Part shown: piece after piece, positions 1 to 28,152 of the stretch
How the letters are laid out: each line of letters begins with the position of its first letter
How positions within the stretch are numbered: the first letter of the stretch is position 1
Virus record (IMG/VR): IMGVR_UViG_638341086_000001
Span: 1-28,152 of that record
Direction: 5' to 3' (one strand)
DNA length: 28,152 nt
Origin: a virus
Taxonomy: Duplodnaviria; Heunggongvirae; Uroviricota; Caudoviricetes
Translations under genes and position numbers: made by a program
Notes under the pieces: generated by a model
Databases searched by the model: none
The model's input: the letters and a program-made list of their open reading frames with translations, nothing else
Told to the model about the DNA's origin: nothing

Positions 1-601
1 CGTAATCGTCGGCGTTCGGTTTACTGTCGACCACGTGATACCGGCTGGCGCTGACAAGAGTTACCGGGTTAATAGTCAACAGGCCATCAGTTACAGCCTC
101 ATCAATGGCGCTGCGCAGAAATGACAGGTTATTCCTGATTGTTTTCAGCTTAGTTTTTCGGCTGGCTATCCAATTTTTTAGTACCGCAGGCGTCAATTCT
201 GTTACATGTAGTTTATGTAGTTCTGATAGTGCTGATAGACATTTTTCGTAACCGCCAATGGTTGACGGCGACAGATTGCGGTTCATGCAAATTTTCAGGT
301 ATTCATCAAGATAGGACTTAATATTTTTGGTTTTCTTTACTACACCGAATAACTCCAGTTTTTTGGAACTGGGGAAATATTTCGCATATTCAAACGTTCC
401 GCTGGCGATCTGATTTTGTATCTCCCCTAGCAGGCGCTCAGCATATTTAATACCACGTGTATTTGCCTCAAGCCGAGACAGGGGCTCCCTGCAAAGAACC
501 CCTTTATATGTGAAAGTGATAACTAGTGTTGAAGCAGTTTTATGCTTACGAATAGTTACTCCTCTTGGCAGAGATAATAATCCTTGTTCTTTCTTGCCCA
601 T
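1..601 (-). CDS. int: Tyrosine integrase, N-terminal ~200 codons (3' end lies beyond the window start)
   Basis: Minus-strand frame open from ATG (601-599) to position 1 with no stop. Translation MGKKEQGLLSLPRGVTIRKHKTASTLVITFTYKGV...GIKYAERLLGEIQNQIASGTFEYAKYFP...IRNNLSFLRSAIDEAV resembles the arm-binding/core-binding N-terminus of lambda-family integrases. Start lies inside the excisionase 3' end. Absent from the ORF track because it has no in-window stop. Confidence 0.8.
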   Translation of the reverse strand, partial: MGKKEQGLLSLPRGVTIRKHKTASTLVITFTYKGVLCREPLSRLEANTRGIKYAERLLGEIQNQIASGTFEYAKYFPSSKKLELFGVVKKTKNIKSYLDEYLKICMNRNLSPSTIGGYEKCLSALSELHKLHVTELTPAVLKNWIASRKTKLKTIRNNLSFLRSAIDEAVTDGLLTINPVTLVSASRYHVVDSKPNADDY

Positions 602-765
602 TTTGAAACCTCTATTAAGTCGACCCAGCGTTCTTTAACTCCGTCGACTTTTAATACATGAACCCCTTCTTTCCATATTCCTCTTTGTATCCGTTTGTTA
701 ACGGCATCAACCGTTTCTCCCGCGTCGCGGCAGTAGGTTGATATAGGCACGCAATCCAGCCCCAT
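556..765 (-). CDS. xis: Excisionase-like small DNA-binding protein
   Basis: 69-aa ORF (MGLDCVPISTYCRDAGETVDAVNKRIQRGIWKEGVHVLKVDGVKERWVDL...), basic with W/K-rich winged-helix-like pattern, overlapping the integrase start by 46 nt as in int-xis modules; RBS GAGGTG upstream of ATG. Confidence 0.6.
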   Translation of the reverse strand: MGLDCVPISTYCRDAGETVDAVNKRIQRGIWKEGVHVLKVDGVKERWVDLIEVSKWARKNKDYYLCQEE

Positions 766-773
766 ACATCACC

Positions 774-920
774 TCACATAACACTCAGCCCACGGCAGTG
801 GCACCACACGTCAAACATTCGCTTCACAACTTCACGACAGTAGAAGCCGTCAACATCTCGCGTCAGGTCATAGCGATTGCCGTAACGCTGGTGGACCCAT
901 TGTTCAAATGCTTTATTCAT
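774..920 (-). CDS. Hypothetical small protein (48 aa)
   Basis: ATG at 920-918, stop at 776-774; MNKAFEQWVHQRYGNRYDLTRDVDGFYCREVVKRMFDVWCHCRGLSVM; packed between the IS-disrupted gene and xis; weak RBS. Below the 60-aa cutoff of the ORF track. Confidence 0.3.
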   Translation of the reverse strand: MNKAFEQWVHQRYGNRYDLTRDVDGFYCREVVKRMFDVWCHCRGLSVM

Positions 921-923
921 TCT

Positions 924-1120
924 TTACTTCCTTTTTATGGCTCGTAATTTTTTCAGGTGCTTTTCCTGCTCAGTGTCCGCGAGAATTTTGCGGTACTCCT
1001 GGTGGTCAATATGTTCGAACAGGCAGTTTAACTCACCAATGCGTACCCGCCCGGATCGTCCGTCCATCCGTCGAAAGAACACTGAGTGCTCAGTGATGCG
1101 AGTAATCACCACGGGGTATC
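924..1120 (-). pseudogene. C-terminal fragment of a small gene (~80 aa) split by the IS629 insertion
   Basis: Frame ...YPVVITRITEHSVFFRRMDGRSGRVRIGELNCLFEHIDHQEYRKILADTEQEKHLKKLRAIKRK continues without stop into the IS left end. Joining it to 2434-2479 after removing the IS and one ATC copy restores a single ORF MFALIQRGQIYTDRAGYPVVITR... Confidence 0.5.
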
Positions 1121-26720: not shown

Positions 26721-27043
26721 CGGCATTACTGACACTGGAAGAGATCAAGGCACATCTGCGTGTCGACCATGACGCGGATGATGACATGCTGATGGACAAG
26801 GTTCGTCAGGCTACCGCCGTGCTGCTGGCCTACATTCAGGGCAGCCGGGATAAGGTGATTCGTGAGGACGGTGAACTGATCCCGGGCGAGGCATTAACCC
26901 GGATGAAGGGGGCTGCCATGCGACTGACCGGGATGCTGTACCGGAATCCGGATCTTGCGGAGCGGGAAGAACTGATTCAGGGGGAGCTGCCGTTTTCTGT
27001 TTCCGTGCTGATTTACGATTTGCGTTGTCCGACGGTGTTATGA
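26717..27043 (+). CDS. Head-tail connector protein (HK97 gp6-like)
   Basis: 108 aa; MTALLTLEEIKAHLRVDHDADDDMLMDKVRQATAVLLAYIQG... matches the LxxxKxHLRVD...DD N-terminal signature of gp6-family connectors. Confidence 0.7.
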   Translation: MTALLTLEEIKAHLRVDHDADDDMLMDKVRQATAVLLAYIQGSRDKVIREDGELIPGEALTRMKGAAMRLTGMLYRNPDLAEREELIQGELPFSVSVLIYDLRCPTVL

Positions 27044-27052
27044 GGAGGGGGA

Positions 27053-27399
27053 ATGGCAATATCTGCAGGTCGTCTGACACAGATGATAAGTGTTCTGAAC
27101 CCGGTGTTAACCCGTAATGCTGCCGGAGAAATGACGGAAGAATGGGTGTCATGCGGGAAAATTCATGCGGATATCCGTGGCAGGAGCAGCCGGGAGCGGA
27201 TGCAGTCCGGTGCGGAAATGCGCAGGCGGAAATCCGCATCTGGTGCGCGGTCAGTCCGCCGGGAAATCACGGCAGCGTCACGACTTCATGTGCTGAGTGG
27301 TCCATGGCGTGACCGGATCTGAACGTTGTCGGGCTGCCCGTGCCGGATGCGACCGGCGGGCGTCTGGAAATTCTCTGTCGGCTGGGAGGGGAAAAATGA
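27053..27399 (+). CDS. Head closure / head-tail joining protein (gp7-like), apparent frameshift near 27315-27325
   Basis: N-terminal part MAISAGRLTQMISVLNPVLTRNAAGEMTEEWVSCGKIHADIRGRSSRERMQSGAEM...VRREITAASRLHVLSGPWRD in one frame; C-terminal ...LNVVGLPVPDATGGRLEILCRLGGEK in the adjacent frame ending with ATGA overlap on the next gene; both halves match the family pattern recalled from memory. Confidence 0.55.
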
Positions 27400-27842
27400 T
27401 CGAAACCCTGCTGGATTTTTCGGGGCTGGAGGACATCAGCCGCGATTTGCAGCTTCTGAGTGGTGCGGAAAATAACCGGGTGCTGCGTGAGGCAACCCGT
27501 GCGGGTGCGAATGTGCTGAAAGAAGAAGTGGTGTCACGGGCACCGGTACGCAGGGGAAAACTGCGCCGCAATGTGGTGGTCCTTTCCCGGCGCTCCCGCG
27601 ATGGCGGGATGGAATCCGGTGTCCATATCCGTGGTGTTAATCCGGACACCGGTAACAGCGATAACACCATGAAGGCGGATAACCCGCGCAATGCTTTCTA
27701 CTGGCGGTTTGTGGAAATGGGGACCGTGAATATGCCACCGCACCCGTTTGTGCGCCCGGCGTTTGATGTGCGCAGTGAACAGGCAGCTCAGGTGGCGATT
27801 GCGCGGATGAACCGGGCCATTGATGAGGTACTGAGACGATGA
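27396..27842 (+). CDS. Tail-component protein (HK97 gp10-like)
   Basis: ATG at 27396 with GGGAGGGG upstream; MIETLLDFSGLEDISRDLQLLSGAENNRVLREATRAGANVLKEEVVSRAPVRRGKLRRNVVV...MPPHPFVRPAFD; position after the head-closure gene. Confidence 0.6.
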   Translation: MIETLLDFSGLEDISRDLQLLSGAENNRVLREATRAGANVLKEEVVSRAPVRRGKLRRNVVVLSRRSRDGGMESGVHIRGVNPDTGNSDNTMKADNPRNAFYWRFVEMGTVNMPPHPFVRPAFDVRSEQAAQVAIARMNRAIDEVLRR

Positions 27843-28152
27843 CGGAGGCGGATTTGTATCCTCATCTGGCGCATCTTGCCGGCGGGCAGGTGTACCCGTA
27901 TGTGGTCCCCCTGCTGGATGGCAGGCCGTCGGTGGCGCTTCCGTGGGTGGTTTTCAGCCTGATTTCATCGGTGTCTGCGGACGTGATGGGCGGGCAGGCG
28001 GAGTCCTCAGTGTCGGTGCAGATAGACGTTTATGCCGGGACTGTGACGCAGGCGCGTCAGATACGTCAGGACGCCCGTGAAGCCATAATGCTGCTGGCCC
28101 CGGGATCCGTCAGTGAAATGCAGGACTATATTCCGGAAAACCGCTGTTACCG
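27839..28152 (+). CDS. Tail-completion protein (gp11-like), 5' portion; continues beyond the window end
   Basis: ATGA overlap with the previous stop; MTEADLYPHLAHLAGGQVYPYVVPLLDGRPSVALPWVVFSLISSVSADVMGGQ...; open to the window edge. Confidence 0.4.
   Translation, partial: MTEADLYPHLAHLAGGQVYPYVVPLLDGRPSVALPWVVFSLISSVSADVMGGQAESSVSVQIDVYAGTVTQARQIRQDAREAIMLLAPGSVSEMQDYIPENRCY

Follow-up and report, generated by a model that had tools for sequence, protein, structure and literature searches.

The 28,152-nt stretch of viral DNA analysed here (the window; IMG/VR record IMGVR_UViG_638341086_000001) is likely to come from a genuinely defective prophage with inherited lesions, overlaid in the record by a few local sequencing errors. 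An initial annotation, made from the sequence alone, had listed five loci at which single-nucleotide lesions interrupt phage genes, and had offered two mutually exclusive explanations: decay of a cryptic prophage, or systematic homopolymer error in the assembly. All five loci are found in the sequence close to where they had been placed, and each breaks the reading frame relative to intact homologues. However, the two explanations do not exclude each other, since the evidence shows a mixture of inherited lesions and error-like ones that are private to the record. Decay accounts for the beta-clamp frameshift, the TerB lesion and the TerL nonsense codon, which recur independently, and probably for the lengthened G tract in Q. 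Systematic homopolymer error, on the other hand, is at odds with the long runs, nearly all of which agree with those of relatives.

The prophage and its relatives

Judging by gene order and nucleotide identity, the element is a lambdoid prophage with an HK97-type head from an attaching-and-effacing-type E. coli lineage. In nucleotide comparisons the window is 96–99.9% identical to lambdoid prophages and to Stx-phage morphogenesis modules. The ORF map and Pfam matches give the lambdoid order of integrase, early genes, CI-like and Cro-like repressors, replication, Q, lysis, terminase and head genes, an order that is also supported by the annotations at the near-identical loci L001–L004. The replication module is of the DEAD-helicase/toprim type, and the window is without stx. 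In strain Z1323HEC0393 the same prophage adjoins ssrA; no tRNA genes were found in the window itself. The neighbours of the damaged genes are whole, as had been noted before, and include the DEAD helicase, the toprim primase, a 616-aa esterase, the lysis genes, terS, the capsid gene and gp10. Among RefSeq complete E. coli genomes, the top match to the terminase-capsid segment is 99.8% identical and one base longer than the window, and that to the head-closure segment is 99.7% identical. The sister genome has 7 copies of the terminase-capsid module, and genomes in the relatives' group have a median of 2 and a maximum of 8 near-identical head modules.

Lesions shared with other genomes

The gene for the large terminase subunit, TerL (20425–22085, plus strand), carries two lesions: GG is reduced to G at 20922, and GGA is changed to TGA at 21495–21497, which replaces Gly358 with a stop codon. 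Both had been recognized before, and both are borne out by the intact TerL of locus L001, from which the window gene differs at three places, the two lesions among them. The TGA is common to loci L005, L006 and L007, and is seen in Logan contigs from SRR1931741 and SRR1931745, which are independent Illumina assemblies. The corresponding 357-aa product occurs on 5 contigs, one of them a chromosome of 5,249,232 bp. By these comparisons, the change of Gly358 to TGA is a reproducible inactivating mutation in an essential gene, real and inherited, and the most consequential of the lesions. (A functional split TerL, with separate ATPase and nuclease, was considered and rejected: by Pfam the TerL_nuclease domain spans residues 276–535 and so contains the stop at codon 358, and the downstream ORF is without the first ~90 residues of that domain.) With the TGA alone, the prophage should be unable to cut its DNA and package it, except where terminase comes in trans, presumably from one of the several near-identical head modules in the same genome.

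The beta-clamp-domain ("DnaN-like") accessory gene (2603–3171, minus strand) is frameshifted in comparison with its intact homologues. The lesion, previously put at about 2939, is the loss of one C between 2934 and 2935, where CAGCGATC in the reference locus L003 has become CAGGATC, and it cuts the gene into fragments of 119 and 93 aa. (The Pfam DNA_pol3_beta_2 match to this gene is sub-threshold, at E=0.0055.) All of the RefSeq complete genomes that carry the gene (59/59) have it whole, at 577 nt. The deletion is present in 6 IMG/VR contigs, and an exact-protein look-up found the identical 119-aa fragment on at least 203 contigs (287 index blocks), which include many NCBI assemblies and several integration sites. 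Since it recurs in independent assemblies, this −1 frameshift is, on the sequence evidence, real and inherited.

What remains of the TerB-family gene (13157–13549, plus strand) is a remnant with no start codon, damaged by a mosaic junction and a nonsense codon. The TAG that had been reported at 13253 is there, arising from GAG at 13253–13255. The A-run at 13159–13173, which had been put forward as a second lesion, does not hold up: GGAAAAAGGAAAGTT is neither a homopolymer nor a frameshift site. Instead, the 5' end of the gene has been swapped for other sequence upstream of ~13168, the left edge of homology. The TAG allele is found on 89 IMG/VR contigs, and 49 of the 89 have the same junction. 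PGAP marks the same gene as a pseudogene ("internal stop") in the RefSeq complete genome of Z1323HEC0393. These recurrences indicate that both the TAG and the 5' truncation are real, inherited lesions.

An IS3-family insertion sequence of 1310 bp (1121–2430, plus strand; Pfam HTH_Tnp_1 and rve), with orfA at 1175–1501 and orfB at 1501–2388, splits a small DUF4222 early gene. It has the size of IS629 and is flanked by a target duplication of 3 bp; relatives L011–L020 run unbroken over 1120|2431, with a 3-nt overlap. Z1323HEC0393 carries the same insertion, which by this comparison is real and vertically inherited. It was missing from the initial list of lesions.

Could all of the lesions be artefacts, caused by platform-wide homopolymer error or by the collapse of paralogous prophages, and the prophage itself be intact? 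Several near-identical head modules in one genome can mislead assemblers, and the private indels described below do resemble errors. However, four lesions (the beta-clamp frameshift, the nonsense codons in TerB and TerL, and the IS) turn up again in independent assemblies, which number in the tens to hundreds and come from differing technologies, and the long homopolymers are concordant with those of relatives, so that an intact prophage is exceedingly improbable.

Indels private to the record

The error pattern was scored by comparing 22,679 nt with the nearest relatives. Private differences amount to seven 1-nt indels and five substitutions. Six of the indels are in G/C runs with a true length of 2–3 nt, and four of the seven lie within 100 nt. 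Of 49 runs of at least 6 nt, 48 have the length seen in the nearest relatives; with a single discordant run, error does not rise with homopolymer length, and systematic homopolymer error of the 454, Ion Torrent or nanopore type was rejected because the long runs match. Nanopore errors at Dam/Dcm motifs were likewise rejected, GATC being touched by only two deletion sites and CCWGG by none. Because the private indels fall in 2–3-nt G/C runs and four are clustered within 100 nt, they point to local low-quality sequence rather than to a platform-wide homopolymer bias. The artefacts are best explained as base-calling errors in GC-rich sequence prone to hairpins, for example through compressions or coverage by a single read; notably stable hairpins are found at only three of the five deletion sites. 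The record is presumably of Sanger-era origin, given its old IMG genome id and old UniParc ids.

The indels at 27220, 27242, 27258, 27319 and 6211 are absent from the independent assemblies of the closest relatives. The deletion at 20922 is absent from L006, L007 and the 5.25-Mb chromosome but present in L005, whereas the lesions at 2935, 13253 and 21495 are all present in relatives.

In the head-closure gene (head completion, PF05521; 27053–27399, plus strand), which overlaps the intact gp10 (27396–27842), a lesion had been suspected at about 27315–27325. It is there, at 27319, but it is one of four 1-nt deletions, not a single one. The other three, at 27220, 27242 and 27258, add up to −3 and so restore the frame, leaving a scrambled patch of 13 residues, and thus only 27319 was visible beforehand. 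In the best matches to window positions 26700–28152 (1453 nt) in 1244 RefSeq genomes, the four gaps are the sole differences, with zero substitutions. Exact patterns across the deletions had no match in viral_contigs or genome_contigs, and neither the truncated head-closure product (HC_N) nor the fusion of head closure with gp10 was found among 15 billion proteins. At two of the sites, the surrounding 45-mer has a folding energy near the 5th percentile. Absence elsewhere and sequence context together suggest that the four deletions are probably artefacts of the record. A sister record, the old and related L005, shows the same mode of error, with two private 1-nt deletions at 27800 and 27808.

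The same two lines of evidence mark an extra C at 6209–6211 as a probable artefact. This private insertion makes an intergenic CCC where relatives (L009, L011–L020 and L027–L031) have CC. It, too, had not been listed in the initial annotation.

The status of the TerL deletion at 20922 is somewhat more complicated. Across 19620–23744 (4.1 kb), the extra G at 20922 is all that separates L007 from the window. In the intact sequence this G begins the 3' arm of a perfect, 8-bp GC hairpin, CACCACC/GGTGGTG (−9.5 kcal/mol), and the window-type N-terminal TerL product was not found among 15 billion proteins. From this absence and the sequence context, the deletion is probably an artefact. Among relatives it is found only in the old IMG record L005, which has 7 substitutions and 6 indels relative to the window and yet shares the deletion. 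Because it is common to this non-identical record, it could instead be a true sub-lineage mutation in a gene already dead from the TGA.

The same observations bear on whether all of the lesions might be real, the loss of terminase in an advanced cryptic prophage having been followed by neutral frameshifts in TerL, head closure and Q. The TGA is ancestral in the lineage, so that any subsequent damage to packaging or head genes would carry no selective cost; the 20922 deletion is found in two non-identical records, and the G7 tract in Q has been seen in Illumina assemblies. Natural divergence in E. coli consists mostly of substitutions, however, and here private indels outnumber private substitutions by 7 to 5, with four 1-nt deletions packed into 100 nt against zero substitutions over 1453 nt relative to other strains. 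Furthermore, the private products were not found in other assemblies, and an otherwise identical Illumina contig is without the 20922 deletion. Wholly genuine decay is thus rather unlikely, and the mixture of inherited lesions and local errors remains the preferred reading.

Comparison with known prophages

The prophage regions of early EHEC and EPEC genomes were corrected by later resequencing. Like the frameshift artefacts of early draft E. coli genomes, the window has lone 1-nt indels in otherwise conserved prophage genes, and as with those artefacts, later short-read or closed assemblies do not reproduce its private indels. Intact relatives are provided by phages YYZ-2008 (NC_011356) and BP-4795 and by prophages in CP148579 and CP148357. 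These have the same late gene order as the window (HNH, terS, TerL, protease-capsid fusion, portal, connector, head closure and gp10), and their late regions are 96–99.8% identical to it at the nucleotide level, but unlike the window, they have intact genes for TerL and head closure, and for TerB where it is present. For annotation, four features should be counted as real (the nonsense codon in TerL, the TerB pseudogene, the frameshifted beta-clamp gene and the IS), while the bases at the head-closure frameshifts, at TerL 20922 and at the extra C at 6211 should be regarded as unreliable. Public short-read assemblies and exact-protein look-ups can replace the resequencing for which the initial annotation had called.

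The inherited part of the damage has precedents. The Sp1–Sp18 prophages of EHEC O157 Sakai include defective lambdoid prophages (Asadulghani et al. 2009, PMC2669165), and in lambdoid prophages of EHEC there are records of frameshifts, of IS insertions and of defects complemented in trans (PMC2669165). The Sakai prophages and the window are alike in being lambdoid, with frameshifts, IS insertions and broken packaging or head genes. Sakai has several near-identical prophages in one genome, and a prophage with a terminase or head defect can there be rescued in trans (PMC2669165). In Sakai Sp4 an IS disrupts nu1 (PMC2669165), whereas in the window TerL has a nonsense mutation. The window is also a different prophage from those of Sakai, with DEAD-helicase/toprim replication, no stx and integration beside ssrA. 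Lambdoid prophages that lack a working terminase and share an E. coli genome with others are already well described, as is their rescue by co-resident prophages.

G tracts in the antiterminator and portal genes

The antiterminator gene Q (Pfam PF06530; 12578–12971, plus strand) has seven Gs at 12609–12615, as reported earlier, where the sister prophage L002 has six. With G7, the ATG at 12578 reads MRDIQMVLERWGGMGGKW, followed by a stop after 18 codons. A GTG at 12582, 4 nt past the ATG, opens a 129-aa frame in the G7 sequence without the conserved N-terminus: the G6 protein scores 176 bits in Pfam and the alternative-start G7 protein 149 bits, with profile positions 1–11 lost. RefSeq genomes with this Q allele have G6 in 69 of 69 cases and G7 in none. 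Among the compared loci, 11 have G6, while the window, L009 and L010 have G7. At the protein level, at least 367 contigs encode the exact G6 product and 2–3 the G7 product. G7 was found in Logan contigs from two independent Illumina assemblies, ERR302897 and SRR14228802, and one G7 Illumina assembly is 99.96% identical to the window across 8.2 kb. G7 is thus probably real but rare. The slip from G6 to G7 at codon 12 would be a rare, recent strand-slippage mutation that deprives the late antiterminator of its conserved N-terminus. Since no RefSeq complete genome has G7, it could also be an error in the window and the Logan contigs alike.

The portal region (24298–26720, plus strand) consists of two ORFs of 454 and 353 aa that overlap by ATGA at 25659–25662. 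The split stems from a G5 tract at 25643–25647; phage YYZ-2008 has G6 and a fused portal of 861 aa, relative to which the window is also short of one 162-nt repeat unit. An A6 run abuts the TGA at 25654–25662, and a −1 slip there, in a possible programmed ribosomal frameshift, would reach the frame of the second ORF. The same split is found in BP-4795, which also has G5, in JLK-2012, in Stx1/Stx2 phage records and in L001, L004, L021 and L022. PGAP flags the portal as "frameshifted", and a sixth decay lesion was considered here but rejected, because sequenced phages such as BP-4795 are split likewise; by this comparison the split is a normal variant, not a lesion of decay. It had not been listed in the initial annotation.

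Might some of these changes be regulatory? Q would then have a G6/G7 slippage switch between the ATG and the GTG, by which a tract 31 nt into the gene sets whether or how the late operon of the prophage turns on, and in the portal gene the G5/G6 tract and the A6-TGA overlap would together switch a long isoform on and off or adjust its production. The length of the Q tract is polymorphic among near-identical prophages, G7 occurs in two distinct replication-module backgrounds, the GTG keeps a 129-aa frame open, and sequenced phages include both split and fused portals. Nevertheless, such a role is highly unlikely. The two states are not both common, G7 being very rare (no RefSeq genome, and 3 contigs against at least 367 for G6). 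The alternative-start product loses 11 conserved N-terminal profile positions, or ~27 bits, and the G tract in Q just encodes a conserved Trp-Gly-Ala.

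Organization of the prophage

The window is an E. coli lambdoid prophage. Its left end holds the 3' part of the integrase and small early genes, split by a 1310-bp IS3-family element (1121-2430; the size of IS629/IS1203, with a 3-bp target duplication) that interrupts a DUF4222 gene. Then come an early-left block on the minus strand (the beta-clamp-domain gene, ORF6N, SPFH and a ParE-like gene), a LexA-like repressor with a Cro/YdaS pair, a DEAD-helicase/toprim replication module, the Q antiterminator (PF06530) with a TerB remnant, an intact, NanS-p-like DUF1737-SASA-DUF6645 esterase of 616 aa (14121-15971), and the lysis genes (holin, lysozyme and Rz). 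The exact esterase sequence is unmatched in a collection of 15 billion proteins; the window has T at 14372, 14441, 15330 and 15883, unlike both L001 and L002 (annotated near-identical relatives), and two of these four changes are non-synonymous. The right part carries, in order, HNH, terS, TerL, a protease-capsid fusion, portal, connector, head closure and gp10. Over this late half, identity to the morphogenesis modules of Stx1-phage-like prophages, found in ~1250 RefSeq complete genomes, is 96-99.8%. The same prophage, with the IS insertion in common, adjoins ssrA in the E. coli strain Z1323HEC0393 (99.94% identity over window 6847-15456). That strain lacks the counterpart of window 2431-6846, lost in a deletion beside the shared IS. 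In the interval separating Q from the lysis cassette (window 12971-13160), where relatives have tRNA-Ile or tRNA-Arg genes, neither tRNA nor stx genes were found; at ~13030-13055 a terminator-like GC hairpin precedes a T run.

Inherited lesions

Do the broken genes reflect decay or sequencing error? The initial annotation posed these as mutually exclusive choices, and its observation of the lesions was largely correct, but the evidence points to a mixture of the two. The resequencing that it proposed was replaced by exact-protein look-ups and exact-pattern scans of public data. About half of the lesions represent true inherited decay, including the functionally decisive nonsense mutation in TerL.

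Compared with an intact TerL of 553 aa, the window gene has just three differences, among them a GG to G deletion at 20922 and a GGA to TGA change at 21495. Both lesions suspected in this gene, near 20920 and at 21495, are seen in the alignment; the TGA alone recurs in Illumina-type assemblies. It is present in Logan contigs of SRR1931741 and SRR1931745, where the gene-caller product is an N-terminal 357 aa ending at the TGA, and the same product is found on a 5,249,232-bp NCBI chromosome that also has the window-exact capsid, both portal ORFs and the beta-clamp fragment. The 20922 deletion is absent from these TGA-bearing assemblies. It is the sole difference over 19620-23744 between the window and L007, a relative with the TGA, and occurs in only one other record, L005, an IMG/VR contig that belongs to an old IMG genome and also has the TGA. 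The nonsense codon, at residue 358, is inside the nuclease domain (residues 276-535). Upstream, between HNH and terS, the presumed cos region (19575-19620) contains a G7 and an A8 run and has several 1-nt indels among four otherwise close relatives (L001, L002, L006 and L023).

In the beta-clamp-domain gene, where a DnaN-like lesion had been placed at ~2939, base-by-base alignment to intact relatives shows one C missing between 2934 and 2935. At least 203 contigs, many NCBI assemblies among them, encode exactly the 119-aa product of this frameshift, with the prophage at several integration sites. Since the 2935 deletion is also found in six IMG/VR contigs, and the gene is intact (577 nt) in 59 of the 59 RefSeq complete genomes carrying it, the frameshift is real and specific to this prophage lineage.

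For TerB, alignment to intact relatives confirms the proposed nonsense codon (GAG to TAG, 13253-13255), an allele found in 89 IMG/VR contigs; in Z1323HEC0393 the gene is annotated with an internal stop. The accompanying "A-run" at 13159-13173 is no homopolymer, however, but the start of homology to intact TerB, and the 5' end of the gene has therefore also been lost. Because only 49 of the 89 contigs share this 5' mosaic junction, the stop may be older than the truncation, or may be carried with several upstream contexts.

The lesions of the lineage are the TerL nonsense codon, a dead TerB, the frameshifted beta-clamp-domain gene and the IS in a small early gene. Such a prophage would depend on terminase supplied in trans to cut and package its DNA. 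Rescue of this kind is plausible, given that several near-identical terminase-head modules coexist in related genomes (median 2, maximum 8 per genome; seven places in Z1323HEC0393), and complementation in trans has been shown in O157 Sakai prophages (PMC2669165). The window belongs to the well-described class of defective lambdoid prophages of EHEC/EPEC-type E. coli and is nothing new in kind; intact relatives for comparison include YYZ-2008, BP-4795 and the prophages in CP148579 and CP148357.

Probable record-specific errors

The other half of the lesions, including the most conspicuous, the head-closure cluster, is best explained as sequencing error specific to this record. A break at ~27315-27325 had been noted and is found at 27319, but as one of four single-base deletions (27220, 27242, 27258 and 27319) rather than a single lesion. 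The first three sum to -3, limiting their effect to 13 scrambled residues, while the fourth truncates the protein. None of the four is present in L005 or in the best matches of 1244 RefSeq genomes; over 1453 nt, these gaps are all that separates the window from those RefSeq matches. Exact-pattern scans did not find the deletions in viral or species-representative collections, and the truncated product has no match among 15 billion proteins.

Systematic homopolymer error finds no support in the runs themselves. Over 22,679 nt compared with the nearest relative chosen per segment (19575-19620 had no such comparator), there are seven private 1-nt indels and five substitutions. Among 49 homopolymers of at least 6 nt, 48 agree with the nearest relatives, the Q G7 tract being the exception; the remaining six indels are in runs of true length 2-3 nt, and four of the seven lie inside 100 nt. 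For these reasons, the signature is not length-dependent homopolymer error and fits local low-quality sequence.

Hairpin-forming contexts cause band compressions in dideoxy (Sanger) sequencing. The G missing at 20922 opens the 3' arm of a perfect CACCACC/GGTGGTG hairpin, and two head-closure sites fall in 45-mers whose DNA folding energy is near the 5th percentile; by analogy with these known artefacts, compression could have occurred at such sites. The window record is presumably of early date, given its old IMG genome id and UniParc ids. A reproducible, context-dependent compression at 20922 would account for a deletion that two non-identical old records have in common and Illumina assemblies lack. 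Two further 1-nt deletions, both in gp10, are private to L005 (window equivalents 27800 and 27808; L005 7625-7632) and show the same error mode as in the window; L005 also has a patch of seven substitutions in the capsid gene (window 23363-23599). Together, these suggest either draft-quality sequence or a paralogous prophage copy.

Q and portal

The G7 tract flagged in Q (12609-12615) is present, and breaks the frame relative to the G6 of aligned relatives: the frame from the ATG at 12578 ends after 18 codons because of the extra G, while a 129-aa frame from a GTG at 12582 stays open. G6 is found in 69 of 69 RefSeq genomes carrying this allele of Q; G7 appears again in two Logan contigs built from Illumina data, and over 8.2 kb one of these matches the window at 99.96% identity. 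If real, the slip would cost the 11 most N-terminal conserved positions (Pfam score 176 to 149 bits) and probably weaken or abolish late antitermination.

The portal is encoded by two ORFs of 454 and 353 aa with an ATGA overlap (24298-26720), because the window has G5 at 25643-25647 in place of the G6 of YYZ-2008, where there is a single 861-aa portal. PGAP marks the gene as frameshifted in relatives. Decay was rejected here, as BP-4795, JLK-2012 and several records of Stx phages show the same split. The portal stop codon directly follows an A6 run (A6 plus TGA, 25654-25662), and a -1 slip there would reach the frame of the second ORF, making this a possible candidate for programmed frameshifting. 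A role as slippage switches for the short G tracts of Q and portal is speculative, and disfavored by the rarity of G7. In the second portal ORF, units of ~162 nt (54 aa) repeat in tandem (25824-26254), one unit fewer than in L001 and YYZ-2008; a weak CBM_5_12 match lies close to the C-terminus of this ORF.
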